64,000 nt of DNA from Clostridia bacterium (GCA_017508875.1 JAFWQX010000066.1:1584-65583), one strand, 5' to 3'; positions 2,376-31,901 are shown, counted from the stretch's first letter. A program made the numbers and translations. The notes: generated by a model from the sequence alone, not told the origin.

Positions 2376-4979
2376 ATGAATGCAGATAAATTTACAAAAA
2401 AATCGATGGAGGCGCTGACGACGGCGCAGAACATCGCGACAGAAAACGATAACCAGCAGATAACCCAGGAACACCTGCTTTACGCGCTGATCGACCAGGA
2501 CGGCGGGCTCATAGGCAGCCTGCTGAAATCGATCGGCGTTGACAACGACCGCATGCTTAGCGAGCTCGACGGCCTGATCAGGGCTTTGCCGAAAGTGACG
2601 GGAAGCGGCAGGGAACCGGATAAAATATATATTGCCCCCGATACGGATAAGGCGCTCTCGCTCGCCCAGACGATCGCGGAAAAAGCGAAGGACGAGTACG
2701 TTTCAGTCGAACATATTATGCTCGGCATCATCGAGCGGCCCTCGGAAAACATATCAAAACTGCTGAAAAAATACGGAATCGACCGCTCCGGATTCGTAAA
2801 AGCGCTCGAAAACGTTAAAAACGGCCGGATCACGAGCGACGACCCCGAGAGCACGTACGATGCGCTGAAAAAGTACGGCACCGACCTGGTCGAACGCGCA
2901 AGAGCACAGAAACTTGACCCCGTGATCGGCAGGGACAATGAGATCCGTAACGTCATCCGCATCCTGTCGCGTAAGACGAAAAACAACCCTGTACTGATCG
3001 GCGAACCGGGCGTGGGCAAGACGGCTATTGCCGAAGGCCTGGCGCAGAGGATCGTTGCCGGCGACGTGCCGGAGGGGCTTAAAAACAAAACGATCATCTC
3101 GCTCGACATGGGCGCGTTGATCGCCGGCGCGAAGTACCGCGGTGAATTTGAGGAAAGGCTCAAAGCGGTGCTGGAGGAAGTGCGGAAATCGGAAGGCCGC
3201 GTGATACTGTTTATTGATGAACTCCACACGATCGTCGGTGCGGGAAAGACGGACGGTGCGATGGACGCCGGAAACCTCTTAAAGCCCATGCTTGCGAGGG
3301 GCGAGCTTCACTGCATAGGCGCGACGACGCTCGACGAGTACAGGAAGTACATCGAGAAGGACGCGGCGCTCGAGCGAAGGTTCCAGCAGGTGCTGGTAGA
3401 CGAACCCACCGTCGAAGACACGATATCGATCTTAAGAGGGCTGAAGGAAAAATACGAGATATTCCACGGCGTAAAAATACACGACGGAGCACTTGTCGCC
3501 GCCGCAACACTTTCACACAGGTACATAACAGACCGGTTCCTGCCGGATAAAGCAATTGACCTCGTCGACGAAGCCTGCGCGATGATCCGCACGGAGATCG
3601 ACTCGATGCCTCAGGAACTTGACGACCTGCGCAGAAAGATCATGCAGCTCGAGATCGAAGAGACCGCGCTTAAGAAAGAAACGGATAAGCTTTCACAGGA
3701 GCGGCTCGAGGCACTGCGTTCTGAACTGGCCGAATCCAAGGACAAATTCAACGCCATGAAAGCGGACTGGGAGGCCGAAAAGCAGGACATTGACAGCGTA
3801 AAGAGCATAAAAGAGGAGATCGACGCGGTCAACGGCGAGATCGAAGCGGCGTCAAGGAATTATGAGTACGAAGTGGCCGCCAAACTCCGCTACGGAAAAC
3901 TGCCCGAACTCACAGCCAAACTTGCCGAAGCCGAAAAGCGCAGCGAGCAGTCTGCGGGCGACGTGAAGCTTGTCCGCAACACCGTGACCGCAGATGAGAT
4001 CGCCGGCATCGTTGCGCGCTGGACGGGTATACCGGTGGCGAAGCTGATGGAAGGCGAGCGCGAAAAAGTGCTCCATCTGGACGAAATACTGCATAAGCGT
4101 GTGATCGGTCAGGACGAGGCGGTGCAGAAGGTCAGCGAGGCCATACTGCGGTCAAGGGCCGGTATTTCGGATCCCAACAGACCCATCGGTTCGTTCATGT
4201 TCTTAGGACCTACGGGCGTAGGTAAAACGGAGCTCGCAAAAGCGCTCGCGGAGGCACTGTTCGACGATGAGCACAATATCGTCAGGATCGATATGAGCGA
4301 ATATATGGAGAAGTTCAGCGTGTCAAGGCTCGTGGGTGCGCCTCCCGGATACGTCGGATACGACGAGGGCGGCCAGCTTACGGAGGCCGTAAGGCGCAAA
4401 CCGTACTCGGTGGTACTGTTCGACGAGATCGAAAAGGCACATCCGGACGTCTTTAACATACTGCTGCAGGTGCTTGACGACGGACGTATAACCGATTCCC
4501 AGGGCAGGACGGTAGATTTCAAAAACACGATCATAATTATGACGAGCAACCTCGGCTCCGATTTCCTGCTGGAAGGCATCGGTCCGGACGGCGAGATTTC
4601 CGAGGAGGCCAGAAACAGCGTAAGCGCACTGCTCTCGAGAACGTTCAGACCGGAGTTCCTGAACAGGCTCGACGAGATCGTGTATTACAAACCGCTTACC
4701 AAGGACGATATAGGCAGGATCATTCAGCTGCTGATCGCGTCGCTGAGAAACAGGCTAAAGGAGAAGTCGCTCGATCTCGAGATCACACCGGCGGCTGTTG
4801 AAAAGATAATTGAAGAGGGGTATGATCCGCTTTACGGAGCAAGGCCGCTCAAACGGTATCTGCAGGCAAAAGTCGAGACGGTCATCGCGAGGGCAATGCT
4901 GTCAGGCGATTTCGGCATGGGGGACACGATCGTTGTTGACACCGGCGAAAACGGCGGGTTCACAACGAAGCGAAAATAA
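2376..4979 (+). CDS. clpB: ATP-dependent chaperone ClpB (two AAA+ modules with coiled-coil middle domain)
   Basis: 867 aa; Walker A GEPGVGKT and GPTGVGKT; Clp N-domain; long coiled-coil between NBD1 and NBD2; strong RBS GGAGGG. Confidence 0.95.
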
Positions 4980-5075
4980 TATATAATTTGAACAGATCTA
5001 TAGGGATCGATCCGGGGGAATAGATCCAAACGGATAAAAACAATGGGATAAATCTGAGGGGAGTTGAGCAGGAAC

Positions 5076-6272
5076 ATGGCTAAAAACACTACTCGATCCG
5101 AACGGGCCGGAATTATTGTCCGGGCTATTACGTGCGCAGTGCTTGCTGCGATAATGCTGCTGTCGCTTGCGACAGGGTGTAAGAACGGGACAGACGGCAA
5201 CGGAACTGTCATTGACCGCCCCACGGAAGTATTGACGACGTCACCGCAGCCGCCGGAAACGACGCCGGACGCGACTCCGACACCTGCTCCGACCGAACTC
5301 CCCGAAGAATTATTTGTTGACAACGTTTATCCGCTTTCGGAGAACATTAACAGCTTTAAGGTGTACGGCAGGCACGAAGTGAAAGAAAAAGGCGTTACTT
5401 GCGACTGGTCAGGCAGCGGCTTTGCGTTCCGGGCCGCGTTCGAAGGAGACGTGTACCTCGAAACGACCGTTCCCGGAGAATGCTACCTGACCGTGTTCCT
5501 CGACGGCGAGCGCCAGACGGACGTAATAAAAGCGAGTAAAAACACGCTGCTTCTGAAGGACGTACCCAGAGGCAGCCACCTCGTCGAAGTGTTCCGCCAG
5601 TCGGAGATCAGGCAATGCCTCTTAATGCTTAAAACCGTGAAAATGCACGGAACGCTCCTCGAACGCCCCGCTGATAATCAACTGTTTTTTGAGTTTGTAG
5701 GCGACAGTATAACTTCCGGGTACGGGACAAATGCTAAAGCTGACGCGGGCACTAACACCGACGCGACGATGGGGTATCCTTTCCTTCTGTCGAGGTCAAT
5801 GAACGCGGACCACAGCATCGTTTCCGTTACCGGTATCGGTATGGTCAAGGGTTACGTCAACGAAACCATGCCTGACGTTTATAAGCTGCTTGACCGCTAC
5901 AGGTCCGCGAAGACGGTGTTCGAGCCGGTTCGGGTGCCAAATGCCGTGATCGTTAATCTGGGCACGAACGATGCCACTATGAGTTCGGACCCTGCTAAAT
6001 ATATCGATGCAGTGAAGGCGCTGATCGGTGAGATCAGATCGTTCTACGGCAATGACGTGCCCGTGGTCTGGGTGTATAATTCCATGCGCTCGGATCACAG
6101 CAGCCATACGCTTAAGGCGCTTTCGGAGCTGGGCGGCGAGGCGGCAAAGCTCTATTCGTTCAAGATGGAGATGGATTCGTCTTCGTTCGGTCATCCTTCG
6201 GCCAACGCGCATAAGATGGACGCCGAGGCGCTGAAGGCATTTATTGAGACGCTGCCGGGTATCGTTCCTTGA
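5076..6272 (+). CDS. Lipoprotein SGNH/GDSL-family hydrolase with Pro/Thr-rich linker
   Basis: Signal peptide + lipobox LATGC; linker TPDATPTPAPTELPEE; GDSL block FVGDSITSGYG; C-terminal SGNH-like region. Confidence 0.7.
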   Translation: MAKNTTRSERAGIIVRAITCAVLAAIMLLSLATGCKNGTDGNGTVIDRPTEVLTTSPQPPETTPDATPTPAPTELPEELFVDNVYPLSENINSFKVYGRHEVKEKGVTCDWSGSGFAFRAAFEGDVYLETTVPGECYLTVFLDGERQTDVIKASKNTLLLKDVPRGSHLVEVFRQSEIRQCLLMLKTVKMHGTLLERPADNQLFFEFVGDSITSGYGTNAKADAGTNTDATMGYPFLLSRSMNADHSIVSVTGIGMVKGYVNETMPDVYKLLDRYRSAKTVFEPVRVPNAVIVNLGTNDATMSSDPAKYIDAVKALIGEIRSFYGNDVPVVWVYNSMRSDHSSHTLKALSELGGEAAKLYSFKMEMDSSSFGHPSANAHKMDAEALKAFIETLPGIVP

Positions 6273-6297
6273 CACCCGACCAAGATTATTATATAAT
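6269..6297 (+). promoter_or_regulatory. Promoter for tRNA-Gln: TTGACA -17- TATAAT
   Basis: TTGACA 6269-6274, TATAAT 6292-6297, tRNA begins 6310. Confidence 0.55.
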
Positions 6298-6309
6298 CCG
6301 CCTAGCCGT

Positions 6310-6381
6310 TGGGGTGTAGCCAAGCGGTAAGGCACCAGACTTTGACTCTGGCATTCGCAAGTCCGAATCTTGCCATCCCAG
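6310..6381 (+). tRNA. tRNA-Gln (anticodon TTG)
   Basis: Manual fold: acceptor TGGGGTG/CATCCCA (U1-A72 as in bacterial tRNA-Gln), D arm GCCAAGCGGTAAGGC, anticodon stem CCAGA/TCTGG with loop CTTTGAC, T arm GCAAG-TCCGAAT-CTTGC, discriminator G; CCA not encoded. Confidence 0.8.
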
Positions 6382-6478
6382 TCAAATAGCCATCGTTACA
6401 AAAGCGGTGGCTATAATTTTTAAAAAGCAGTCTGATCGGAAGATCGGTCTGTATCGTCGCAAAAGCTGCGGGGCGTGG

Positions 6479-7291
6479 ATGATGAGCGAGATTTATTTCG
6501 ATTTCAAAAAAGAACCGGATTTTACAGGAATACTGATCTGCACCGATTTTGACGGAACACTGTACAGCCACGGGATCGCCCCCGCGAACGTCCCTGCGAT
6601 CGACTATTTCATGAAGCGCGGCGGTAAATTTACGCTGTGCTCGGGGCGCGACGGAAGACTGCTGAACGGCGGAAATCTGCCTTTTACGCCTAATGCCCCC
6701 GCGGCGTGTATGAACGGCGGCATTATCTACGATTTTCAGAAAGACGCGATCTTAACGCGCAATCCCATGGCGGATAACTATTACGAGCTCCTGCAGGATC
6801 TGATAGACGGAATGGAACTCAGATGCGCGGATATTGTCTCCGAAAACCTGCGTATCGGATTTAACACGGCCGATCCAGACGATTTCGCACGTGCGCGGGC
6901 TCAGATAAGTTCACCTGTGTACAAGCTTGTCGTCTATAAGGCTGAACCCTCTGACGACTGGGTCCCGGAAGCCGCAAAAAGAATATGTTCAGGCCGCGCT
7001 AACGTACTTTCCAATTCACGCAACTGCTTCGAGCTCAACGCTCCGGGGATCGATAAGGCGTACGGCGCACGCACCGTAAAAGAATATACAGGGTCAAAAA
7101 TACTCATAACCGTCGGAGATTGCGACGGTGACATGTCAATGTTCCGGATCGCCGACGACAGTTTTGCGGTGGGCAACGCGATCCCGGAGCTTAAAGCTAT
7201 TTCCGGCCATGTCGCCGAAGCGACTGTTTCGGAAGGCGCATTCCCGGAGATCATCCACGCCATTGCCTGCCTTTACGGAGGAGCAGAATGA
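6479..7291 (+). CDS. HAD-superfamily hydrolase (Cof-like, HAD-IIB)
   Basis: Motif I DFDGTLY near N-terminus, later GDCDGDMSMF motif (HAD motif IV-like); start uncertain (GTG 6407 or ATG 6479/6482). Confidence 0.65.
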   Translation: MMSEIYFDFKKEPDFTGILICTDFDGTLYSHGIAPANVPAIDYFMKRGGKFTLCSGRDGRLLNGGNLPFTPNAPAACMNGGIIYDFQKDAILTRNPMADNYYELLQDLIDGMELRCADIVSENLRIGFNTADPDDFARARAQISSPVYKLVVYKAEPSDDWVPEAAKRICSGRANVLSNSRNCFELNAPGIDKAYGARTVKEYTGSKILITVGDCDGDMSMFRIADDSFAVGNAIPELKAISGHVAEATVSEGAFPEIIHAIACLYGGAE

Positions 7292-10152
7292 AGACCGCAC
7301 GCCTCGATAAAGCGGAAAAACCGTTAAGAGCGCTCCTGCTGATTGCCGCATTCATAATACCGGCGCTCACGGCATTGTCCGTATTCGCGGCGTACGGGAT
7401 GTATCCGTTCGGGGAAAAATCCGTTCTCATAATGGACATGTCCGGACAATACGTGGAATTTCTTGCCGGACTTAAGCATCTGCGTTCTCCCGCGGATATG
7501 TATTTCAACTGGGGGAAGGTGCTTGGCGGTAATTATTCGGGCGTCTTTGCGTATTACGCCTCGAGCCCGCTGTCGTTTCTGACCGTTTTCTGTCCGGACC
7601 AGTACATGGACGCCGGGCTGCTGTTCCTTACGGTGCTGAAAATAGGTCTCTGCGGGCTTACGATGGCGCTCTTCCTCACTAAATTTCTTATGCGTACGTT
7701 TAACCGTTCCGTGCGTTTCGCGCTGGGAGAGGCGTTTTCGCGCAACACTATAAGGGCGGGGATCGTGCTTCTGTTCTCAACGCTTTACGCTCTTTGCTCC
7801 TATAACTGCGTGTACTCGATGTGCGTGATGTGGCTCGACGGCGTGATAATGCTGCCGCTCATACTGTACTTTACGGAGGTACTGATCGACCGCGGAAAAA
7901 TCGCGGGACTCGTTGCCTGCTTCACGTATATTTTTATTGCGAACTATTACGTCGCGTTCATGTGCGGCGTGTTTACGGTGATATATTACGTATTTTACTG
8001 CATTGACCGCAGAAAAACCGACGCGGAACTGGCGCTGGACAAAAGTACGGCCGTACGGTTCCACGCAAACCGCTTCCTGAAATTCGCGCTTTCGGCAATA
8101 CTTGCCGCATGTCTCGCTGCCTTCATCCTGCTTCCCGCATTCTTCTCGCTGTTCGAAGGAAAAATCGGCGGCGCAAACAGCTCGTACCCGTCCGACTGGA
8201 ATTATTCTTTTACCCAATTCATCCGCAAACTGTTCATAGGCGAGTACGACGCCATTACCAACAGCGGTGCGCCTTTCTTCTACGGAGGCGCTGCGGTGCT
8301 GCTCGCAGTCCCGCTTTTCTTCATGAACCGGAGGATAAAGGTCCGAACACGTATTTCGGCAGCCGCTATACTCGCGTTCCTGCTCTTTTCTACAGCGCTT
8401 TCTCCGTTGGACAATATGTGGCACATTTTCCAGCATCCGAACTGGTTCCCGTACCGCTGGTCGTTCATTCTCACGTTTTTTGCAGTATTCATCGCTTTCC
8501 GCGCCGTGCTTGCGTTTCGCTTCGAGAGTCCGGGGGCAATACTTTTTTCGTCTTGCTTGATCGGTGCGCTTTGTCACGCGGCGGTCAATATGTCTGAGGA
8601 TAAACCTGGCGCTGATCACGTTTACAGACAATTTGCGCTGGCCCTGATCTTCGCCGCACTGATCATCGCATTGTCGCTGCTGATGAAATTTTTCCGGCTG
8701 AAAAAGCGAAACACTTACGCGCTTAAGACCGCGGCAGGATTATTCTGTGCGCTTGCATTGTCCGTGACCGTAATTGTCACGGCAGTCAGGGAGGAAACGT
8801 ACCACTGGAAGCCGCTGCTCGAAGGACTTGACCGCGCGCACCACTACGAGACCGCCGAATCATATATAACGTACAAAGAAGAAATGTCGGAGGCGCTCGG
8901 GATCGTTGACAAAGACAGAAACGCGCTCGGACTTTCGAAGTATTCCGGCATAAGTCAGAACTTCTCGCGCAGCTACAACGAAGCTGTCGGGTTCGGGTAC
9001 AGGTCGGTCGCTCACTACAGTTCCGCGTTTAACAGGAGCGTCAATGATTTTCTCGGGAAATTAGGCTATTCCTGCGCTTATCTCTGGAACCTCGATTTCG
9101 GGGCAACGGCAGTGACGGACAGTATTTTCGGCCTTAAATATTATCTGAGCGGGAACGGTATCCTCGCGTGGGACGCGGAAGAACTTGTTGAAAGAGGCAG
9201 TCCGGCGCTCCCGTACGAATACGAAAAAATCGGAAGCGTTGACGGCGCGTTCGGAATAGATATCTACAGAAATCCGTACGCCGCTGACGGACCGTTCCTG
9301 CTGGGAGCCGATCCGTCCGGTTTCAGCCTTACGAACAATTATTTTGAAAACCAGAACGCGCTTATCAAACTCTGTTCGGGCCTTGAAGGAGACGTCTTCA
9401 AGCCGCTCGACAGGGGATACGTTACACTCACGCTTCCGGCGCTTCTCACCGGAAATAACGGCGAGGACGGTAATTACAGAGGCAGCGGCGCCGAACTTGA
9501 ATACACCGTGATATTGCCCGAAGGCGGGGTCCTTTACGCATTCTTCAAAGATTACGGGCACGAAGGTAATCCCAGTCTGAAGCTGCGCTCGGATGAGACG
9601 GATATAGATCCGATCAGGCTTTTCCGCGGAGAGACCAGCTGCATCCAGCGCCTCGGAAGTGCGCGCCCGGGCGGAGGCGTAGCGTTTACGATCGAGATAG
9701 CCAGATCGCTTAATACCAACGGCTTTATGTTTTACGTGCTGGATGAAGATATGCTTAAACAGCACATGGATGCCATCAAGGCGGCATCTCTTAACATAAC
9801 AAAGTTCGGGACGGGATATATTAAAGGGTCGTTCACGGACGGGAGCGCGGCTGCGAACGGCGGGTATCTGCTGCTTCCGGCAGCGTACGATCAGGGCTGG
9901 ACGGTAAAGGCAGACGGCGGGAAAGTTTCGACAAGTTCGCTCGATGGCGGATTGCTGGTCGCAAAGATCCCCGCCGGGACAAAAAACGTGGAGCTCAGGT
10001 ACAGGGCTAAGGGGCAGGTCGCAGGTACGTTGCTGTCAATATCCGCATTCGTTTTCTGCGCGTCTGCCATTGCCGCGACGCTGATCAAAAAACGCCGTAA
10101 GCGCCTGGACGCCGGGGCCTTAAACGATCCCGAACCGGTTGATTTTAAGTGA
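7288..10152 (+). CDS. YfhO-family polytopic membrane protein (envelope glycosylation-associated)
   Basis: 954 aa, N-terminal region MYPFGEKSVLIMDMSGQYVEFLAG characteristic of YfhO, >10 predicted TM helices followed by large extracytoplasmic C-terminal domain; RBS GGAGGAG. Confidence 0.75.
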   Translation: MKTARLDKAEKPLRALLLIAAFIIPALTALSVFAAYGMYPFGEKSVLIMDMSGQYVEFLAGLKHLRSPADMYFNWGKVLGGNYSGVFAYYASSPLSFLTVFCPDQYMDAGLLFLTVLKIGLCGLTMALFLTKFLMRTFNRSVRFALGEAFSRNTIRAGIVLLFSTLYALCSYNCVYSMCVMWLDGVIMLPLILYFTEVLIDRGKIAGLVACFTYIFIANYYVAFMCGVFTVIYYVFYCIDRRKTDAELALDKSTAVRFHANRFLKFALSAILAACLAAFILLPAFFSLFEGKIGGANSSYPSDWNYSFTQFIRKLFIGEYDAITNSGAPFFYGGAAVLLAVPLFFMNRRIKVRTRISAAAILAFLLFSTALSPLDNMWHIFQHPNWFPYRWSFILTFFAVFIAFRAVLAFRFESPGAILFSSCLIGALCHAAVNMSEDKPGADHVYRQFALALIFAALIIALSLLMKFFRLKKRNTYALKTAAGLFCALALSVTVIVTAVREETYHWKPLLEGLDRAHHYETAESYITYKEEMSEALGIVDKDRNALGLSKYSGISQNFSRSYNEAVGFGYRSVAHYSSAFNRSVNDFLGKLGYSCAYLWNLDFGATAVTDSIFGLKYYLSGNGILAWDAEELVERGSPALPYEYEKIGSVDGAFGIDIYRNPYAADGPFLLGADPSGFSLTNNYFENQNALIKLCSGLEGDVFKPLDRGYVTLTLPALLTGNNGEDGNYRGSGAELEYTVILPEGGVLYAFFKDYGHEGNPSLKLRSDETDIDPIRLFRGETSCIQRLGSARPGGGVAFTIEIARSLNTNGFMFYVLDEDMLKQHMDAIKAASLNITKFGTGYIKGSFTDGSAAANGGYLLLPAAYDQGWTVKADGGKVSTSSLDGGLLVAKIPAGTKNVELRYRAKGQVAGTLLSISAFVFCASAIAATLIKKRRKRLDAGALNDPEPVDFK

Positions 10153-23679: not shown

Positions 23680-23707
23680 AACCCGGGCGGTCTCCTGGTT
23701 TCCTGGA

Positions 23708-23815
23708 GGGTTTTCTTAAGGGCTTTCTTAAGGGCTTTTTTAAGGGGCTTCTCAAGGGCTTTCTCAAGTGGCTTCTCAAGGGCTTTCTCAAGTGGCTTCT
23801 CAAGGGCTTTCTCAA
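23708..23815. repeat. Nine tandem 12-bp repeats (GGGCTTTCTCAA / GTGGCTTCTCAA variants)
   Basis: Read directly; unit resembles the last 12 coding nt of sufB/D (GGTTTCCTGAAG). Confidence 0.8.
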
Positions 23816-23970
23816 GGAAAACTTAACAGTCTTTCAGCGACAGACTCTCCCGCTCTCGCTCCCCAGTCTCTCTTCGGGCTCTCCGCGGGCTCTGCGGGAA
23901 AAATTACTGTTGCATTTTATTTTTTGTTGTAGTATAATATGCTTCGCTGCTTGAAAAGGCGGCTATCTAT

Positions 23971-24046
<76 letters not shown>

Positions 24047-24049
24047 AAA

Positions 24050-24085
24050 AAGCAAGGCATCCGTCAGGGTGCCTTGTTTTTTTGG
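24050..24085 (+). terminator. Rho-independent terminator after tRNA-fMet
   Basis: gcaaggcatccgtcagggtgccttg + TTTTTTTGG. Confidence 0.7.
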
Positions 24086-24113
24086 TGGGGAAGAAAAGTC
24101 TGGCAGGGAAGGT

Positions 24114-24236
24114 CCGGGTTATGAGCACGACGAGCGGGCACCGCAAAGGGCGCGAAGCGATAACCCGGAGGTCGTTGGTTCAAATCCTTCCCCCGCAGCC
24201 ATACCACTTTAGCACTTTAATGTGGTAAATTTTCAC
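24114..24236. repeat. Degenerate tRNA-fMet remnant: inverted copy of anticodon arm (24114-24135) followed by direct copy of tRNA 3' half (24160-24197) and conserved tail; att-like scar
   Basis: ataacccggaggtcgttggttcaaatccttcccccgca duplicated exactly from 24003-24044; tail cataccactttagcactttaatgtggtaaattttcac recurs at 26425, 27875(partial), 30851. Confidence 0.65.
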
Positions 24237-24337
24237 TTTAGTGCTTGTGTTTTTTCTTTTTTAATCAAAAAGGTATTGACATCCTATATTTCATTTAATA
24301 TAATGGTTTCACCGATTCGGTGAAAGGATGGATTTCA

Positions 24338-25402
24338 ATGAAACAAGGCTTGACTGATTTGCAGTACGAACAACTTGCCAAAGAAGCTTTTACAAAGCTA
24401 ATGAGCAGTATCCCTTTCGTATCAGATATTGAAATAATAAAAACTGGGTTGCAACGCGGGTTTGGTGACTTTCGCGCTGTCGTTCACTTTACGGATTCAA
24501 AAGCAGTTCAGGATTTTTACGTAGAGGTTAAATCCAACGGTGAGAAGCGGTACGCTAATATCTTTTGCATGGAAGCAAAACAGCACATCGATGATTTATG
24601 CTACTTGTTTATGGCACCTTATGTATCGGAATCAACATCTGAATATCTGCGTGAAAACAATCTGAGTTTTTTGGATTTAAGTGGTAATTGTTTTATTTTG
24701 ACAAGACGAATGATAATTCATGTTAGCGGAAAACCGAATCAGTTCATTGAGAAACGAGAAAAGAAGAACTATTTATCAAAGTCGTCTTCGGCAGCTTCTG
24801 CGGTTATCAGAACGATGCTGAATGATCCGGATAAATGGTGGAAAGTCAAAGAATTGTCTGAGGTTTCGAAGAAAGCTATCGGAACTGTTTCGAACGTAAA
24901 AGTTTTTCTGACAGAAAAAGATTGGATTGACGACCATATTTATCAATTCCGTTTAAAAAATTTCAAGGAGCTACTTTATGTATGGAGCAAAGACTATCAT
25001 AAAAAAAAATCAATAACAAAGGAATATTATTCTTTGTTTTCTTTGCCAGAACTTGAGACAGAAATATCAAAATGGAGCAAAACGCATGACCGCAATGCCG
25101 TACTTGGCGGTTTTTCCGCCGCGGCAAGATATGTGCCAACTGTTCGGTATAACAAGATCAACGTTTATGTTGCAGAAGAAGGATTGTACGAATTTGAAAA
25201 AGATCTTGCTTTGACGCCGGTTAGTTCGGGAGGAAATATTGTTGTGACGATCCCTCATGACGATACTCCATGTATGTTCAATCAGGAAATCAATGATTCT
25301 ATAGTTTCATCACCGGCACAAACCGTTATTGATTTACTTGGAATGCCAAACCGCGGAGAAGAGGCCGCCGAAGCGATCATATCTAAATACTATAGGAGGT
25401 AG
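24338..25402 (+). CDS. Hypothetical protein, possible AbiEi-like partner of downstream nucleotidyltransferase
   Basis: Low-GC gene directly upstream (5-bp gap) of AbiEii-like gene; no recognizable motif; assignment by gene context only. Confidence 0.35.
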   Translation: MKQGLTDLQYEQLAKEAFTKLMSSIPFVSDIEIIKTGLQRGFGDFRAVVHFTDSKAVQDFYVEVKSNGEKRYANIFCMEAKQHIDDLCYLFMAPYVSESTSEYLRENNLSFLDLSGNCFILTRRMIIHVSGKPNQFIEKREKKNYLSKSSSAASAVIRTMLNDPDKWWKVKELSEVSKKAIGTVSNVKVFLTEKDWIDDHIYQFRLKNFKELLYVWSKDYHKKKSITKEYYSLFSLPELETEISKWSKTHDRNAVLGGFSAAARYVPTVRYNKINVYVAEEGLYEFEKDLALTPVSSGGNIVVTIPHDDTPCMFNQEINDSIVSSPAQTVIDLLGMPNRGEEAAEAIISKYYRR

Positions 25403-25407
25403 TCAAA

Positions 25408-26247
25408 ATGGATAAGAATGATAATTTGAAAAAATCGACAGATTATTCTCAAGGTCAAAAAGATGCCGCCTATTCCGTACTTGGCGAAATTGTTAACTTA
25501 CTTGCCGATTATTCTGACAATTTACGTATTATCGGAGGATGGGTTCCAACTCTTTTGTATCCGGACAAAGAGCATATCGGATCAATAGACGTTGACGTTT
25601 TGCTGAATCAGCAAAAGATCCAAAAAGCCCAAGGGTATGAGAATATCAGACGAATTCTGACCAGAAACGGTTATACAAAACATCCTGATAAGTACTTTTC
25701 TTTCGTTAAAACCGTGAGTATTCAAGGGGTTGACTATTCTGTCGATGTTGACTTCCTTTCAGGGAAATACGGAGGAGACGGAGGAAATATCAGTAAACAC
25801 GTAGACGGAATCAAAACTCTTCCTGCTACCGCGGGGAACTTTGCGTTTGAGTTTCAGCCGCAAAAAGTCAAAATCGAGTATCAACGTCCGGACGGTGCAA
25901 AAGATTTTGGAAACGTCAGCGTGATTTCCGTCATTCCGTATATAGTTATGAAAACCGACGCACTTGGCAGAGGAAAGCCAAAAGATGCATACGATATTTA
26001 CTGTACAATCACATCATACCCCGGTGGTATCATAGCCCTGGCTAAAGAATTTCTGCCATACTCAAAAAAGAAGCTCATCCAAGAAATGTGCGAAAAACTC
26101 AAAGAAAAATTTGCATCGCCGGATCATGCCGGCCCAACCGATATAGTAGCTTTTTTGGACATTTCAGATGAAGATGAGATCCTGAGAATAAAGCAGGATG
26201 CGTATCAGCGCGTCAAATATCTGATAGATATTTTAGACAAAGAGTAA
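25408..26247 (+). CDS. Nucleotidyltransferase of AbiEii/AbiGii (DUF1814) toxin family
   Basis: RIIGGWVPTLLYPDKEHIGSIDVDVLL = GS-x(n)-D-x-D minimal NTase motif in AbiEii-like context; ~280 aa; strong RBS AGGAGG. Confidence 0.55.
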   Translation: MDKNDNLKKSTDYSQGQKDAAYSVLGEIVNLLADYSDNLRIIGGWVPTLLYPDKEHIGSIDVDVLLNQQKIQKAQGYENIRRILTRNGYTKHPDKYFSFVKTVSIQGVDYSVDVDFLSGKYGGDGGNISKHVDGIKTLPATAGNFAFEFQPQKVKIEYQRPDGAKDFGNVSVISVIPYIVMKTDALGRGKPKDAYDIYCTITSYPGGIIALAKEFLPYSKKKLIQEMCEKLKEKFASPDHAGPTDIVAFLDISDEDEILRIKQDAYQRVKYLIDILDKE

Positions 26248-26339
26248 TCAAAACAGAAAAGTGAACTCCTCCCTTGCGATACCATTGTACCGCGAAGGAG
26301 GAGTTCTGTAAAATGTGCGATTTCAGGCTTGGTCGGTCA

Positions 26340-26470
26340 GCAGATAAGCGGATGAAAATGCGCGCAGGGGCCGTAAATACTTGATTTTATTGTGGTATGG
26401 TCAAATCCGTTATCTCCACTCGGACCATACCGCTTTAGTGCTTTAAAGTGATGAATTTTCAGTTGGGATA
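26340..26470. repeat. Island cassette-boundary repeat, copy 1 (mini-ORF MRAGAVNT 26358-26384 + hairpin 26394-26431 + conserved tail)
   Basis: Aligns with copies at 27790-27900 and 30768-30895 and with tRNA-fMet 3' end/flank. Confidence 0.65.
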
Positions 26471-26579
26471 GAAGACAATGCAGACCTGAATCTTTACTTT
26501 TTTGTAAATTGGAGCGAATCATCTTTACTTTTCCGCTTTCTTGTGTTATAATAAGTAAAGATGAAAGTGAGGTCACACT

Positions 26580-27494
26580 ATGTTTTCATATAAAGGGTTG
26601 GAACAAAAACTGAAAGAGCGGGGAATTGGACGTTCTGATCTGACAAAACTGTTAGGGCTTTCTTCGCGGACGGTCGCAAAGGTAGGCAAAGGCGAGAAGC
26701 TTTCGCGCGGGGTTATGGAAAAACTTGCAGATTTCTTTGGGTGTTCTCCCGAAGAATTGTGCAGGGAGGTTTCGGACAATCCAATTCTGCAAATGCTGCG
26801 GGAAGAAAAAGAGGCGAAAATTTCCGGAGGGCTTTATCACGAGCTGCAGGTGCGTATGACCTACAACTCCAACCACATCGAAGGAAGTAGGCTCACGGAA
26901 GATCAGACACGATTGATTTTCGAAACGAACACGCTGAACGTCGGAGACGGCGTTCCGGTGGACGACATTTTGGAGACGGTGCATCATTTCCGCGCCATTG
27001 ACTACGTCATCGATTCGGCGGATCAAGTTCTTACCGAAGACATCATCAAGGAACTGCATTATATCCTCAAGCACGATACCAAGGATTCAACGCTTGATTG
27101 GTTCGCGGTAGGTGATTATAAAAAACGTCCGAACGTGGTTGGCGGTCGGGAGACGGCAAAACCGAAGGATGTACCGGTGCAGATGAAAAAGTTGCTTGAC
27201 GAATATAACGCGAAGCAGGATATAACGGTCAACGATATCATCGCTTTCCACGCCGAATTTGAAAAGATCCATCCTTTCCAGGATGGCAACGGTCGCGTCG
27301 GCAGACTTATCGCGCTGAAAGAATGTCTGCGGTTCTGTATCGTGCCGTTCCTCATCGAAGACAGCAAAAAGATGTTTTACTATAGAGGCCTGTCAGAGTG
27401 GGATAACGAAAAAGGCTGGCTCACCGACACCTGTCTTGATGGTCAGGATACATTCAGAAAATTGCTTGAAATGTTTGAAATAGAACTGGACTGA
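26580..27494 (+). CDS. Fic-family protein with N-terminal XRE-type HTH
   Basis: Fic motif HPFQDGNGRVGR; N-terminal LGLSSRTVAKVGKGEK HTH. Confidence 0.85.
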   Translation: MFSYKGLEQKLKERGIGRSDLTKLLGLSSRTVAKVGKGEKLSRGVMEKLADFFGCSPEELCREVSDNPILQMLREEKEAKISGGLYHELQVRMTYNSNHIEGSRLTEDQTRLIFETNTLNVGDGVPVDDILETVHHFRAIDYVIDSADQVLTEDIIKELHYILKHDTKDSTLDWFAVGDYKKRPNVVGGRETAKPKDVPVQMKKLLDEYNAKQDITVNDIIAFHAEFEKIHPFQDGNGRVGRLIALKECLRFCIVPFLIEDSKKMFYYRGLSEWDNEKGWLTDTCLDGQDTFRKLLEMFEIELD

Positions 27495-27789
27495 GAAGGC
27501 AATGTTTAGTCAAAAACAAAAAAGTTAAACCCAAAAACAATCAATTCTATATATTAGTAACAATTTGAAAGCAAGCAGGAAAAACAGCAACATTAGTGTT
27601 ATCAAACTTTTATGTAATGATGCAAATTATATTTTGAGGGAAAGAGCAAAAGGCCTTAGGAAACTTTAAGCGATAACGTAAATCTAAAAGAATGGCAGCC
27701 CTATGATTGAGAGCTGTCATTCTTTATTCTATCTTAGTATACTGTTTTCAAAACGTTTGGCATGGTGGTTCCTCTTATGTTTTTGTTAA

Positions 27790-27900
27790 TGATCCATGGA
27801 GGAAAAATGCGCGCAGGTGCCGTAAACACTTAGTTTTATTTGTGGTTTGGTCAAATCCGTTATCTCCACTCAGACCAAATCTTTGTAGCCACAAATCCAG
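27790..27900. repeat. Island cassette-boundary repeat, copy 2 (mini-ORF 27807-27833, hairpin 27844-27881)
   Basis: Same element; hairpin stem carries compensatory changes relative to copy 1 (tat/ata -> ttt/aaa). Confidence 0.65.
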
Positions 27901-27931
27901 TGCTTGGGTATTTGATCAAAGCCTTGAAAAC

Positions 27932-29080
27932 CTAATCCTCGTCATACGTTATTTCATAATGCAGTTGGAACGCTCCGGCAAGGTATCTGCGGCGGAGGTC
28001 GCTGTTTATCCATTCGATATTCTTTTGAAAAACGCTGCTGCCGCCGTTCCATTCGACCAGCTCGTCATGCCGCGGATCTTTCTTGTCTTGGAGAATACGG
28101 ATCAACTCTGAGAATCCTCCCGGGCCGCCGCAGTCCTCCGGTGGTGCGTCGCCTTTCAACTCCGTACATACCGGGGCGGGTAGATCAGCGTCTTCAATTA
28201 TCTCGACAAGCCGAATCTCGTGAGTCCACCCGTCGCCGAAATCATATTCGTAAGAAATGCGGTCGGTCTTAGAAAAGACCTCCTCAAGCGTGATCTCCCG
28301 CTCGTCAACGATTTCGCACCCGCGTGCGCCGTATATGTCATCATCTTCCGGAGACGGTATTCTTGCTAACTGTATCGGACGGCCACTTTTTGACCGCTTC
28401 AGGATAAACTCATGCAAGTGGTAATCTTTCCACAAAAACAAATTCTGAATGATATCGTGCAGATAGAATAGCGAAAAGTTCATAGGTACCGTAACGCATC
28501 TGAGGCAAGGCGTTTCAAGCTCAAGTGATATGTCAAAAACGCCGGCACGGGTACTGTAGAGCTTGCCATATTTTTCTTTAAGCGCACGTTCTTGCTCTTC
28601 GTAGGTTGCGTAGACGTCCTTTTTGTCGGAGGTGAACCTGAGATCATCATTGATCATAGGAAGCAGAACCGTTTGAAAACGATCGTCGGGTTCAAAACAG
28701 TTTTCGTAGCGTTCAATTCTTTGGCAGAACTTGTTTAATCTTGCAACGGAAGACCTATCGCCTGTTTTACACAAGCTTGCCGGGAAACAGCAATCGGCGA
28801 TATAGCGGTCGATCACCTCTTGGGAGATGCTTTCCGATGCGAGCATATTCCGTAATCCTGCCTCCAACAGTTCTTGCAACTTCTTTTTATCGCCTGCCGT
28901 GATCCCGTACAGCAGGAAACCGCATCCCGTCGAATCATTGGCGATCACAATGCACTTTCTGCGATTCATCACGATAAGATTTGCGGAAAAAGCAAAAAGT
29001 GGATCAATTCCTTTTGTGGCCTGTTCCGGAGATATGCCTAAATAATCAATCAGTTTTTTTGTGCATCCGATTTGTATCAT
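27932..29080 (-). CDS. pRiA4b ORF-3-like family protein (PRiA4_ORF3 domain) with N-terminal uncharacterized domain
   Basis: YEYDFGDGWTHEIRLVEI matches YxYDFGDxWxH signature; RBS AGAAAGGAAAGG. Confidence 0.65.
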   Translation of the reverse strand: MIQIGCTKKLIDYLGISPEQATKGIDPLFAFSANLIVMNRRKCIVIANDSTGCGFLLYGITAGDKKKLQELLEAGLRNMLASESISQEVIDRYIADCCFPASLCKTGDRSSVARLNKFCQRIERYENCFEPDDRFQTVLLPMINDDLRFTSDKKDVYATYEEQERALKEKYGKLYSTRAGVFDISLELETPCLRCVTVPMNFSLFYLHDIIQNLFLWKDYHLHEFILKRSKSGRPIQLARIPSPEDDDIYGARGCEIVDEREITLEEVFSKTDRISYEYDFGDGWTHEIRLVEIIEDADLPAPVCTELKGDAPPEDCGGPGGFSELIRILQDKKDPRHDELVEWNGGSSVFQKNIEWINSDLRRRYLAGAFQLHYEITYDED

Positions 29081-29118
29081 AATTGCCTTTCCTTTCTAAG
29101 ACTTAACAAAATCTCAGA

Positions 29119-30630
29119 TCAATGTTCAACTCTGTAAAACTTTTGATACTTGCTCTTAGGTTTCTCCGGTATCGTCATCGCGAGTTTGCCCGCGACGACA
29201 AGCGGTCTCAGGTATTTTGTAACAACGTAATACGGCGTTTGGATGTTCAGCATTGAGGCGATCTCTTCCTTGCTTTTCGGCTCTGTGCAAAAAGTAAGTA
29301 TCCGTTCTTCGACGGTGACGGATGGACTGCCGGGAACGATCGACGTTTCCTTTTTTGAAAACAGCGTCGCCTTGAAAATGCCTCTGTAGTTTTCAAACAG
29401 CGGCTCGGGAAGCCCGGCTTTCCTCATTGCTTCACGAATCGTCGGAATACCGGAAAAACGGTTTTCGGTATCGATCATGACTTCGAGATTGCTTGCGATA
29501 AACGGGTTTCTTGTGTCTCCCGGGACTTTTCCGAGATCGTTGATCGTCAGGCGTCCGTAAAGCCCGCCAGGATTTTCTACCACAAGTCTGTCGCGGAAAA
29601 GGATCACTCTGACAGGGGAGCCCTCGGTATGAACGCTGTAATCTCGGTGGATCAGAGCGTTCAGGATCAATTCGCGGACGGCGACGAGCGGATATTCCGG
29701 CTTATCGGTCCTGCGACCGTTTTCATCCACAACAACGGCGGTTTTTATGTTTCGCCTTACAAAGTTCATTGCGCCTTCCAGCATCTCCGGTATCGTTCCG
29801 TCAAAGCGCTTGTTGTCGATAAAGCGTTCTCCGGACGCTCCGAGGTCGCCAATCTCATATCCGTCTACGACCATAGCGGTGATACCGAGCTGGGGGAAAA
29901 ACGCTTGGGGATAATCGCCGACAAGCATCAGCCCGGCGACGGTAGGCTTGCCGTTATCCGTGAGCCCTTGAAGTTTCATGATTCTGAGATCATCCTGATT
30001 TGCGAGCTGCGGCTTTTCCGTTTTTAGCTTTGCAAAATACAAACTCAGTTTTTCGCGGCTGAGATCATCCGTTTCCGCGCGGTCCACGATTCGCAGCTCG
30101 TCGCGGATCTTCTTTTTATAGACTTCGTAACTGTAGATTTCATATTCGGTCATCGGCATATCCGCGTCGCCTACGCGAACATAAGAGCCGCGGATCCTGC
30201 CGGCTGGCTTATAGAAGCAAGGTTTATTTTCGGGCTCGCACTCCGGTATTTCGGCGCTTACGACCACTTTTCCTTCGTATTCGGCAACCGTAAAAAACGG
30301 GCGAACGACCGGTTCCATCTGCTCCGCGGCGTTTTTGACCTGGACCTGCAGATCCTGCGCGTCATATACGCCCGTAACCTCATACCCAGCCTTTTCATCA
30401 ACGCCGAAAATGATCGTACCGCCGTCATTCTGGTTGGAAAAGCTTGACAGAGTATCGTAAAGCTTTTTAGACGTGCCGCCCAACGCCTTTTTGACTTCCA
30501 CATACTGTTTTTCGCATTTCTGACGCTTCAGAGCGTCTATCAGTTCTATCAGATCTTTCTCTGTCAATGCTGTTGCTCCTTTCGTTATCACAATCTTATT
30601 ATAGTGTTTTTCAAAACGATTGTCAAACAT
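29119..30630 (-). CDS. Schlafen-like AlbA_2 DNA-binding domain + HATPase_c_4 (RecG-C-terminal-like) putative regulator
   Basis: N-terminal AlbA_2-like block (IVITKGATALTEKDLIELID..., FGVDEKAGYEVTGV), C-terminal NALIHRDYS GHKL-like motif. Confidence 0.7.
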   Translation of the reverse strand: MFDNRFEKHYNKIVITKGATALTEKDLIELIDALKRQKCEKQYVEVKKALGGTSKKLYDTLSSFSNQNDGGTIIFGVDEKAGYEVTGVYDAQDLQVQVKNAAEQMEPVVRPFFTVAEYEGKVVVSAEIPECEPENKPCFYKPAGRIRGSYVRVGDADMPMTEYEIYSYEVYKKKIRDELRIVDRAETDDLSREKLSLYFAKLKTEKPQLANQDDLRIMKLQGLTDNGKPTVAGLMLVGDYPQAFFPQLGITAMVVDGYEIGDLGASGERFIDNKRFDGTIPEMLEGAMNFVRRNIKTAVVVDENGRRTDKPEYPLVAVRELILNALIHRDYSVHTEGSPVRVILFRDRLVVENPGGLYGRLTINDLGKVPGDTRNPFIASNLEVMIDTENRFSGIPTIREAMRKAGLPEPLFENYRGIFKATLFSKKETSIVPGSPSVTVEERILTFCTEPKSKEEIASMLNIQTPYYVVTKYLRPLVVAGKLAMTIPEKPKSKYQKFYRVEH

Positions 30631-30694
30631 TTTTCAAAACAAAATCACGTTTTTCAAAACGAATTTTGATATTTTAACAATTGTGTTTTGAAAA
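30631..30694. promoter_or_regulatory. Operator-like TTTTCAAAAC decamer repeats (two direct upstream + one inside first codons + one inverted) upstream of AlbA_2/HATPase gene
   Basis: TTTTCAAAAC at 30608, 30631, 30651; GTTTTGAAAA at 30685. Confidence 0.4.
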
Positions 30695-30767
30695 ATGCGG
30701 CTTTTGTCAAATTGCGGAAGTGTTTCAGTGCCGCTTTTCGACAAAAGCCGTTGTTTTTATTGTCTTA

Positions 30768-30895
30768 TGATCCTCGGAGGAAAAATGCGTGCAGGTGCCG
30801 TAAACACTTGATTTTGTTGGGATTTGGTCAAATCCGTTATCTCCACTCAGACCATACTACCTTAGCGCTGTAAAGTGATGAATTTTTACTTTCGG
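30768..30895. repeat. Island cassette-boundary repeat, copy 3 (mini-ORF 30785-30811, weaker hairpin, conserved tail)
   Basis: Alignment with copies 1 and 2. Confidence 0.6.
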
Positions 30896-31307
30896 AGAGG
30901 TATTTAACAATCGTTATAATCGACAGAACAATGAACATTGTCAAAAACTTGTCGAAAAGTTGCGTCGTAAATGACGTAACTTTTTGATATTATGCTTTGA
31001 CGTAGGCGTACTATAATGTTATAATATCGAAAAGTAGCGTCGGCCCAGACGATATTGTGAGGTATAGATATGATAAAAAGAGATTTGTATTTGAACCGCA
31101 TCATAATTATGATGATAACGGTATTTATCATGTGAATCTTATTGATTTTCTTTTGGGAAAAGTGGAATTGTTTTGAAAACAAGCAAGTCTTGCGCGACCG
31201 TTCAAAGCGCGATCAAACGCCTGACTTAACTCTGATCGATCAAACAAAACGGGTCAAATAAAACCGGATAACGAACCAATATAAAAAATTCGGGGAGAAT
31301 AATTGAT

Positions 31308-31901
31308 ATGAAAAAGACCGAACTCGTTGAACGCTCAAAAATGTATTTGAAATTACTTATTAACGGGATACATCCTGTAACAGGGGAGCAGATCCCGACA
31401 GATTCTGCCTTATTGGGGGATAGAGTTAAAAAATGTTTTAGCTTTATCAGCGGGATCCTTGATGAATACATTGAATTAACCGGCAAAGTTGAAAAGCTCG
31501 AGAAGGAAAAGGAAGCTAATACTGTTATTGTTATGAAAAAGCAGCCATTTGCAATTTCACACGAACAATGCCAGGACATCAAGCTTTCAAAAGAACCAAT
31601 ATCGATGTACTCACTTGTGAGAAATATCAACTCAGTAATCAATACAGAATCAATGGAAAAAATGACTTCAACCGTTATCAACAAGTGGTTATTAAACAGA
31701 GGATTTATAACGGCGTCAAAAGTTCCGACAACTGTGAACAAAACTGTATTCAGCCCGTCGGAACTTGCGGCAAAAATAGGAATAAAAACCGAATCTGTTA
31801 TTAATAAGGCTACCGGCGAAATTAATCCGCAGATCAAATTCAGCGAAAGCGCTCAACTGTTTATAATTGAAAACATAGAAGAAATATCCGGATGCGTTTG
31901 A
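31308..31901 (+). CDS. Hypothetical protein (low GC, island-associated)
   Basis: ORF of 197 aa with RBS; preceded by TTGACG-17-TATAAT promoter at ~31036-31064; no recognizable motif. Confidence 0.4.
   Translation: MKKTELVERSKMYLKLLINGIHPVTGEQIPTDSALLGDRVKKCFSFISGILDEYIELTGKVEKLEKEKEANTVIVMKKQPFAISHEQCQDIKLSKEPISMYSLVRNINSVINTESMEKMTSTVINKWLLNRGFITASKVPTTVNKTVFSPSELAAKIGIKTESVINKATGEINPQIKFSESAQLFIIENIEEISGCV

Follow-up and report, generated by a model that had tools for sequence, protein, structure and literature searches.

Defence and toxin-antitoxin genes cluster in hotspots, and tandem islands, including cis-mobilizable elements (CIMEs), occur at tRNA or tmRNA genes, as exemplified by the ICESt-type CIMEs of Streptococcus and the ssrA islands of Dehalococcoides. 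To our knowledge, the swapping of individual defence systems is mostly unclear outside integrons, and we know of no integrons from Firmicutes. Here we report the analysis of a 64,000-nt stretch of DNA from a Clostridia bacterium (GCA_017508875.1, JAFWQX010000066.1:1584-65583; hereafter the window), in which a tRNA-fMet gene is followed by an island of defence and toxin genes holding three copies of a ~90-bp element, named R, all on one strand and in direct orientation. A preliminary description of this DNA had proposed a cassette-style hotspot at the tRNA-fMet gene with R as its boundary element, and this proposal is borne out by the three direct copies and a partial copy of the tRNA 3' end, which together delimit AbiE-like, HTH-Fic and PRiA4/AlbA_2 cassettes. 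The best explanation of our observations is that small chromosomal cassettes of rumen and gut Clostridia form a family whose conserved end-module is R, with cargo mostly of the toxin-antitoxin or anti-phage type. The more specific reading that we prefer, at a probability that we put somewhat short of even, is that R is the element-side arm of an attachment site, and that recombinase-less cassettes insert in tandem 3' of tRNA-fMet or of an earlier R copy through an enzyme acting in trans.

Like tandem islands and CIMEs, the R arrays lie head-to-tail behind an RNA gene and carry direct repeats at the position of its 3' end, many of their units are devoid of an integrase of their own, and their cargo consists of accessory or defence genes. 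Unlike the repeats of CIMEs, R is a distinct conserved 90-bp element that mimics a T-loop and an ACCA end rather than a copy of the RNA-gene 3' end; when blocks of identity to the tRNA 3' end were used as the test for a CIME, the partial tRNA copy of the window qualified and R did not. Moreover, the junction in the R system follows a complete tRNA, with no tRNA sequence that needs replacing, and no cognate integrase was found at any R array. The arrays also resemble integrons and clusters of attC sites lacking integron-integrases (CALINs), such as those with Vibrio cholerae repeats (VCR), in that cassettes of 0.5-4 kb are split by a ~90-130-bp repeat at one end and assort independently, toxin-antitoxin and defence genes are frequent as cargo, arrays are found with no integrase close by, and the repeat has two inverted box pairs at its ends. 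In contrast to integrons, no IntI was found (there was no Phage_integrase match in the window proteins censused and none recurrent near R in 92 loci), R is devoid of the RYYYAAC/GTTRRRY boxes of attC, its inverted boxes are mismatched instead of showing conserved pairing, and the R cassettes carry their own promoters, lie in either orientation, are anchored at a tRNA gene and reside in Clostridia.

A third point of comparison is provided by the Tn4451 and Tn6104 transposons, where TnpV is found alongside TnpX, a large serine recombinase with a 2-bp target and crossover (PMC3158075). As in the mobilisable TnpX- and TnpV-encoding elements Tn4451, Tn4453 and Tn6104 (PMC3158075), R modules in Clostridia hosts are accompanied by TnpV homologues and by a serine-recombinase fossil or gene, and the putative crossover is placed at a 2-bp (CA) junction, which lies within a ~50-bp imperfect palindrome where TERM, a terminator described below, follows R. 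They differ from these transposons in that nearly all R units lack a recombinase gene, we saw no gene for mobilisation, the arrays are arranged in tandem and linked to a tRNA, and DUF6809, an uncharacterised family encoded next to R, and R itself are not among the transposon features given in PMC3158075. The cassette architecture is best filed among recombinase-less tandem tRNA-associated arrays, resembling both CIMEs and integron arrays.

The R family and its sharp junction at the CCA end

Using an nhmmer profile, we identified 108 copies of R in 92 loci, nearly all from rumen and gut Clostridia, with the copies being ~85-95% identical over 90 bp. Besides the window, 13 loci have two or three copies; three are also present in L107, and orientation on one contig is always uniform. 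In the window, the 23-mer core GGTCAAATCCGTTATCTCCACTC occurs exactly at positions 26399, 27849 and 30826 (0 matches in 100 shuffles), and a segment with a potential mini open reading frame (ORF), ATGCGYGCAGGKGCCGTAAAYACTT, at 26358, 27807 and 30785. A 21-mer of the core has one exact match per genome in 16 species-representative genomes of GTDB, all of which are metagenome-assembled genomes of rumen or gut Clostridia, bar one bin labelled Spirochaetaceae, and a 19-mer of R occurs in 79 metagenome stretches, ~5 of which are expected chance matches; the 21-mer core is a simple sequence handle for cataloguing the cassette pool in rumen metagenomes. R gave no match in the plasmid, phage or viral collections searched, no match in Rfam at E<=5 and no tRNA or tmRNA by ARAGORN, and no sigma-70 promoter was found inside it on either strand. 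It corresponds to no known insertion-sequence terminus or Rfam family in the libraries searched, as far as which show the R family appears to be undescribed. The ends of R carry two pairs of inverted boxes, with imperfect inverted termini TGGTCCaTGGAG...CTCCActcGGACCA. In the terminal TGGTCC...GGACCA the third position is A (TGATCC) in 35 of 82 copies, which reads as an A·C mismatch with the proposed GGACCA partner, and no compensating change was seen among the 82 copies. The family looks recently spread and conserved at the level of its primary DNA sequence.

The right-hand boundary of R is sharp. Of the right-hand similarity endpoints from 3595 pairwise comparisons of R-centred segments, 2688 lay no more than 2 nt from the final A of ...CTCGGACCA (...GGACCA); left-hand endpoints were diffuse, spread over ~25 nt with a second mode ~300-400 nt away. 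In L062, L071, L091 and the window, R lies downstream of a tRNA-fMet gene that shares its orientation, a linkage whose chance frequency we put roughly at well under 1% per locus. Moreover, the 3' ends of R and of tRNA-fMet have the same downstream partners. One of them, named TERM, is a strong terminator (39-49 nt from the first base after the tRNA-fMet CCA in L062 and L071), which matches the right flank of R in 8 other loci, in register from base 1 and with 93-100% identity. The other, DS, is a ~35-nt motif, TACCRCTTTAGYGCTTTAAWGTGRTRAATTTT, which in the window follows the partial tRNA copy, R1 and R3, and not R2; the DS after the tRNA fragment matches the DS after R in 15 copies, again in register from base 1. 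Because TERM is nearly identical in L062 and L071, though the T arms of the two tRNAs differ, it looks horizontally acquired and not native. The comparison of these flanks strongly supports positional equivalence of R and the tRNA-fMet 3' end. Of the earlier proposal that R is derived from a tRNA 3' end, this positional part stands, and the homology part is weak, as the similarity of R to tRNA is limited to a ~11-nt T-loop-like GGTCAAATCC and the ...ACCA end (p 0.003-0.04, not specific to tRNA-fMet). Whole-length homology of R to tRNA-fMet was rejected (z = 0.8-1.7, no better than with tRNA-Gln or tRNA-Leu), and no support was found for an origin from a tmRNA 3' end.

Intrinsic-terminator-like hairpins that start <=25 nt past the CCA characterize 16 of the 44 right-flank classes, DS and TERM included, compared with 0.75 in shuffled sequences. 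Together, R, the CA and TERM form a 52-bp imperfect palindrome centred on CA, in which 17-20 of 25 positions are dyad-symmetric, compared with 6.6 +/- 1.9 (maximum 12) in the null. The CA is present at junctions with R, with tRNA-fMet and with a left partner of the type found in L019, and the distance from the TCAAATCC motif to the CA is 17 nt in R and 12 nt in tRNA. The attP and attB half-sites of large serine recombinases differ by such a 5-bp offset. A third tRNA-like 3' remnant (...CTCAAATCCGCTTCCCGGAGCA) was observed before DS, in place of R or tRNA-fMet, in L019 (~1600-1680) and L064 (~520-600).

Cassette shuffling and a candidate mode of insertion

The left and right flanks of R assort almost independently: among 103 copies, 25 left-flank and 44 right-flank classes form 57 combinations, and only 37 of the 433 copy pairs that share at least 120 nt of left flank share the right flank too. 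That cassettes vary independently between genomes, a point for which the preliminary description had suggested a check, is supported by the finding of the Fic cassette between R copies in at least four different neighbourhoods and of the PRiA4 cassette in several. R-flanked Fic cassettes with differing neighbours are found in L007, L048, L076, L017 and the window, and Fic orthologues with 86-91% identity lie between R copies in L007 and adjoin R in L008. The partner of the PRiA4 gene is AlbA_2 in the window and an AAA_14 ATPase, between R copies, in L088 and L107. Other R-to-R intervals contain an AAA_14 ATPase, a DUF3990 block, HipA-like genes and others, and the cargo on longer contigs includes type I and type II restriction-modification, PLD-helicase, HEPN, TIR and Z1/AIPR systems. 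In L062 and L091, an identical tRNA is followed by differing cargo after the CCA and by an identical end composed of DUF6809, R and the TERM variant TERM'.

The DUF6809 gene lies on the strand opposite to R in 37 loci, with its ribosome-binding site ~25 nt from R, forming with it a module of ~420 bp. Past the DUF6809 stop there is a conserved hairpin, named hairpin a, together with CTGTAAATTATGCGATTTT. Across many loci these lie either left of DUF6809 or directly left of R, and the copies of R that hairpin a abuts have therefore lost DUF6809, a loss that leaves R itself unchanged. Relics of this module in the window are the hairpin left of R1 and a nine-codon reading frame adjoining R2. The DUF6809 gene is often followed by a 103-aa gene, TnpV, a gene with a helix-turn-helix (HTH) of XRE or Xis type, and then cargo. 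In L106-L116, a head block of DUF6809, the 103-aa gene, TnpV and an HTH gene (XRE or HTH_17) precedes diverse defence cargo, including type I/II restriction-modification, PLD-helicase-DUF3427, AAA_21-RloB-TIR and HATPase_c_3-Z1-DUF4420-AIPR. DUF6809 itself had no match in PDB, PHROGs or NCBIfam, no relative in viral contigs and no literature that we could find, and the cassette junction supplies a functional context for this uncharacterised family. Most of its 337 close homologues are on contigs of just 0.5-0.8 kb, which suggests that the DUF6809-R module is probably multi-copy and assembly-breaking and that its copy number is underestimated.

We looked for a recombinase by motif screens, by Pfam censuses that covered the window as well as 92 large proteins encoded nearby, and by look-ups of 11 contigs. 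As the preliminary description had stated for the island, Pfam found none among its six proteins; in the rest of the 64-kb window, the family census, which covered the 25 top-ranked of the 56 families that 33 other ORFs matched, gave none either. Across the loci, the yield was a single example each of a Tn916-type integrase, a locus with intact serine recombinase, a serine-recombinase fossil and an hsdS shufflon integrase, none of them recurrent. The fossil is a large-serine-recombinase pseudogene (Zn_ribbon_recom; L110, 9568-9975) that breaks off at ...ERNSG(I/V), where the CCA end of R abuts it with base precision; this junction was found on at least three contigs (L110 and those encoding the proteins P0241 and P0242), and all 19 database homologues of the fragment are short (<=187 aa). 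L077 has intact serine recombinase genes at a distance of 2.3 kb from R. Next to R, a tyrosine integrase was seen only in L017, in a cassette (4627-9104 in R-oriented coordinates) that starts with a DS variant directly after R and has genes for an IrrE-like peptidase, MazF, and a Tn916-type Xis and integrase. Candidate classes for the recombinase are the large serine recombinases and the Tn916-type tyrosine integrases.

With R as the attachment-site arm, each cassette would open with DS or TERM, continue with cargo that has its own promoter and with hairpin a, include in some cases a DUF6809 gene on the other strand, and close with R. Cassettes would be joined by conservative site-specific recombination at the CA of the tRNA-like ...AC-CA end, the left partner being the tRNA-fMet 3' end at first and resident R copies afterwards, and repeated insertion would give rise to a head-to-tail array of the form tRNA-CA/cassette-R-CA/cassette-R-CA/..., with R and then a native terminator at its distal end. 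The leading terminator of each cassette may keep the whole tRNA gene properly terminated. As the cassettes encode no recombinase, they would be moved in trans. We infer that the junction is the crossover site of a recombinase, and likewise the direction of insertion and the class of the enzyme.

Several observations weigh against this mode of insertion. The R-CA-DS junction, the commonest one, is not palindromic (4-8 of 25 dyad matches), and the ~60 nt of R outside the putative half-site are as conserved as the half-site itself. The genes after tRNA-TERM in L062 and L071 are not obviously cargo, and the terminators after R would fit a transcribed R gene equally well. No recombinase is consistently linked to R across >100 loci or in the 64-kb window. 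The last cassette of the window has no closing R; the island is invariant among same-strain contigs, and contigs with an identical SufD protein, which is encoded upstream of the tRNA-fMet gene, all carry it. Finally, the relatives and loci compared gave neither an excised circle nor a clean pair of empty and occupied sites: of the relatives whose SufD is 86% identical, L103 has lost synteny and L105 keeps the tRNA, the terminator and an inverted tRNA fragment, and among the loci the candidates for presence/absence alleles are ambiguous, with both R copies sharing a DUF6809 left flank.

A bolder extension, which we regard as speculative and on the unlikely side, is an integron-like platform of rumen Clostridia, in which the tRNA-fMet 3' end would take the role of attI and R, with DS or TERM, that of attC, and an unlinked recombinase, possibly a large serine recombinase, would capture, stack and shuffle promoter-bearing defence and toxin-antitoxin cassettes. 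If true, it would be the first such system in Gram-positive bacteria. The base-precise junction common to >100 loci provides a testable substrate (R/TERM, R/DS and tRNA-fMet/terminator) for finding the enzyme.

Alternative explanations of R

Among the alternatives, the one with the highest probability, although still an unlikely one, is that R is an expressed small RNA gene or a cis-regulatory RNA, the cassette boundaries being secondary; R would be either a tRNA-like RNA on the plus strand that ends at the CCA and is followed by a terminator, or, on the minus strand, a 5' leader or anti-Shine-Dalgarno region of DUF6809-TnpV. The intrinsic terminators right after the CCA in 16 of the 44 flank classes would suit such a gene, the R consensus can be folded into a cloverleaf-like shape, its 3' part and the 5' arm of TERM are complementary and might form an antiterminator, and on the minus strand R precedes the ribosome-binding site of DUF6809 by ~25 nt in 37 loci, with its TTTTTCCTCC complementary to that site. 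R is, however, free of detectable RNA-structure constraint: mutual information is confined to adjacent columns, RNAalifold gave, on both strands, weak consensus folds with 0-2 compensated pairs, folding z scores range from -1.4 to +1.35 with the window copies folding no better than shuffles, and the Rfam and ARAGORN searches were negative, as given above. The compensatory changes reported earlier for the hairpin of DS turned out to be one-sided, G-U-compatible changes and mismatches, and a covariation check gave the RNA-structure view no support. Furthermore, the TERM' variant has lost 4 pairs to R with its own stem kept, R persists unchanged despite the deletion of DUF6809, and an RNA function leaves the in-register downstream partners common to R and tRNA-fMet unexplained. 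Far less probable than any other explanation considered here is a translated 8-codon leader peptide, MRAGAVNT, acting as an attenuator, even though most copies have a Shine-Dalgarno-like GGAGGAAAAATG, all three window copies read MRAGAVNT and so do 36 of the 82 distinct copies. The frame is broken in 32 of the 82, by a 1-nt insertion (GCAGG(G)TGCC) in 19, by stop loss, or by the absence of an ATG in 5; in the remaining copies, where the 8-codon ORF is kept (50 of 82), non-synonymous variants are common, and the DNA of R is equally conserved whatever the frame. With frame-breaking changes, which the preliminary description itself had named as refuting evidence, being this frequent, neither the purifying selection on the mini-ORF that had been suggested from the three window copies nor the leader-peptide or attenuator reading built on it held up, and such selection is not needed to account for R identity, since the family looks recently spread and conserved as DNA sequence. 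On the minus strand, coding by R was rejected because the frames contain stops and indels.

Homologous recombination alone, with R as a shared relic, e.g. of one ancestral island, and cassettes exchanged between R, tRNA-fMet and DUF6809 anchors after horizontal transfer, seems to us less probable than an RNA function. L062 and L091, which differ solely in the cargo between identical anchors, look like its product, ~85-95% identity over the 90 bp of R or the ~420-bp DUF6809-R module would offer enough length, and it would require no linked recombinase. But this process cannot create new junctions, and it would leave unexplained the base-precise CCA boundary next to 44 unrelated right flanks, the in-register partners shared by R and tRNA-fMet with only ~11 nt in common, and the palindrome centred on the junction. 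We give a still lower probability to R being a transposon-like terminus or a repeat akin to miniature inverted-repeat transposable elements (MITEs), of low target specificity, with arrays arising from a preference for the ends of existing copies. With dispersed repeats and MITEs such as Correia, RUP and ERIC, R shares its ~90-bp size, imperfect inverted termini, intergenic location and high identity, and the 44 right-flank classes, one of them an insertion inside a serine-recombinase gene, and the many DUF6809-R contigs of 0.5-0.8 kb, typical of assembly-breaking repeats, fit the same picture. Unlike such repeats, R has a low copy number per genome (one exact core match per GTDB genome and none in plasmid and phage collections), uniform orientation within arrays and linkage to tRNA; no transposase family is recurrent near it and no target-site duplication is visible. 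Its flank classes recur in shuffled combinations instead of being unique to each insertion, and with over one third of the right-flank classes being junction terminators and tRNA-fMet enriched upstream, a specific target is indicated.

Organization of the window around the tRNA-fMet gene

The features of the array in the window are listed in Table 1.

Table 1. Elements of the R array and its tRNA-fMet anchor (coordinates are those of the window)
Feature	Coordinates	Strand	Basis
tRNA-fMet, CAT anticodon, array anchor	23971..24046	+	ARAGORN; Rfam tRNA 57.4 bits
Native terminator hairpin (24043-24086), then inverted anticodon-arm copy (24113-24135)	24043..24135	+	inverted repeats
Partial tRNA-fMet copy, 42 nt, anticodon loop to CCA	24160..24201	+	98% identical
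DS0, terminator-like hairpin module from first base after CCA	24202..24236	+	hairpin plus T-run score; matches DS after R
Cassette 1 cargo: AbiEi_2-like regulator (24338-25402), AbiEii-like nucleotidyltransferase (25408-26247)	24338..26247	+	Pfam; L099 gene calls
Hairpin a, conserved, part of extended junction module	26263..26306		inverted repeat
R1, recurrent 5'-variant form (...GGTCAGCAGATAAGCGGATG...)	26349..26427	+	nhmmer E=2e-23
DS1	26428..26462	+	motif after R1
Cassette 2 cargo: HTH_26+Fic	26580..27494	+	Pfam; PADLOC candidate PDC-S04, E=5e-104
DUF6809 remnant, nine codons (MPNVLKTVY*), adjoins R2	27734..27763	-	read from sequence
R2, full length; PRiA4-type right flank instead of DS	27784..27877	+	nhmmer E=4e-27
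Cassette 3 cargo: DUF6933+PRiA4_ORF3 (27932-29080), AlbA_2/HATPase_c_4 (29119-30567)	27932..30567	-	Pfam
R3, full length	30761..30854	+	nhmmer E=3e-27
DS3	30855..30890	+	motif after R3
Decayed last cassette: truncated AAA_14-type ATPase start (31070-31135; MIKRDLYLNRII...), 197-aa gene (31308-31901)	31070..31901	+	sequence reading

The gene content given in the preliminary description was confirmed by Pfam, which assigned AbiEi_2, HTH_26+Fic, DUF6933+PRiA4_ORF3 and AlbA_2+HATPase_c_4, as well as AbiEii with a weak match. Each cassette has its own strong sigma-70-like promoter, located by a promoter scan at 24276-24304 (12/12) for cassette 1, 26524-26552 for cassette 2 and 30626-30598, on the minus strand, for cassette 3, and the cassettes lie in either orientation. 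A further good minus-strand promoter match, TTTACA-17-TACAAT at 26312-26284, was observed in the hairpin left of R1, directed away from R. The 5' variant of R1 also occurs in L035, L042, L072 and L094, and the right flank of R2 recurs in L067, L088 and L090. The 197-aa gene of the last cassette has no family match in the libraries searched; L042 and L071 carry intact versions of this cassette in the order DS-ATPase-R, and in L043 part of the 197-aa gene is found between R copies.

The tRNA gene is recognizable as an initiator by a C1-A72 mismatch and by an anticodon stem with three G-C pairs. An identical gene is present in the relative L105, and the Rfam alignment revealed two U-U mismatches in the T stem, shared with L105. 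The native terminator is also found in L105, which has no island, as are these mismatches and the inverted anticodon-arm copy; the latter two are therefore older than the island. The partial tRNA copy appears to belong to the cassette: in L106, DS and AbiEi come after a degenerate 3' fragment of tRNA-fMet, within an array behind R and a terminator, and because the fragment and DS accompany the AbiE cassette both there and in the window, the copy behaves as a putative fossil attachment junction that travels with it.

Upstream of the anchor, the interval from the SufD stop to the promoter of the tRNA-fMet gene contains, at 23685-23828, a tandem repeat with a 12-nt unit (GGCTTTCTCAAG-like, ~11 units). 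The distance from SufD to the tRNA is 24 nt less in the same-strain contig L098 than in the window and L099, a difference that looks like two 12-nt repeat units. In the relative L103 (SufD 86% identical), a RibF/Lgt/FtsW block directly follows SufD, whereas in the window this block was placed at ~47.5-54.7 kb from ORF coordinates and family matches, and ~24 kb (~23680-47500) are therefore extra or rearranged in the window. This segment includes the tRNA-fMet gene, the cassette island and a glycyl-radical enzyme operon.

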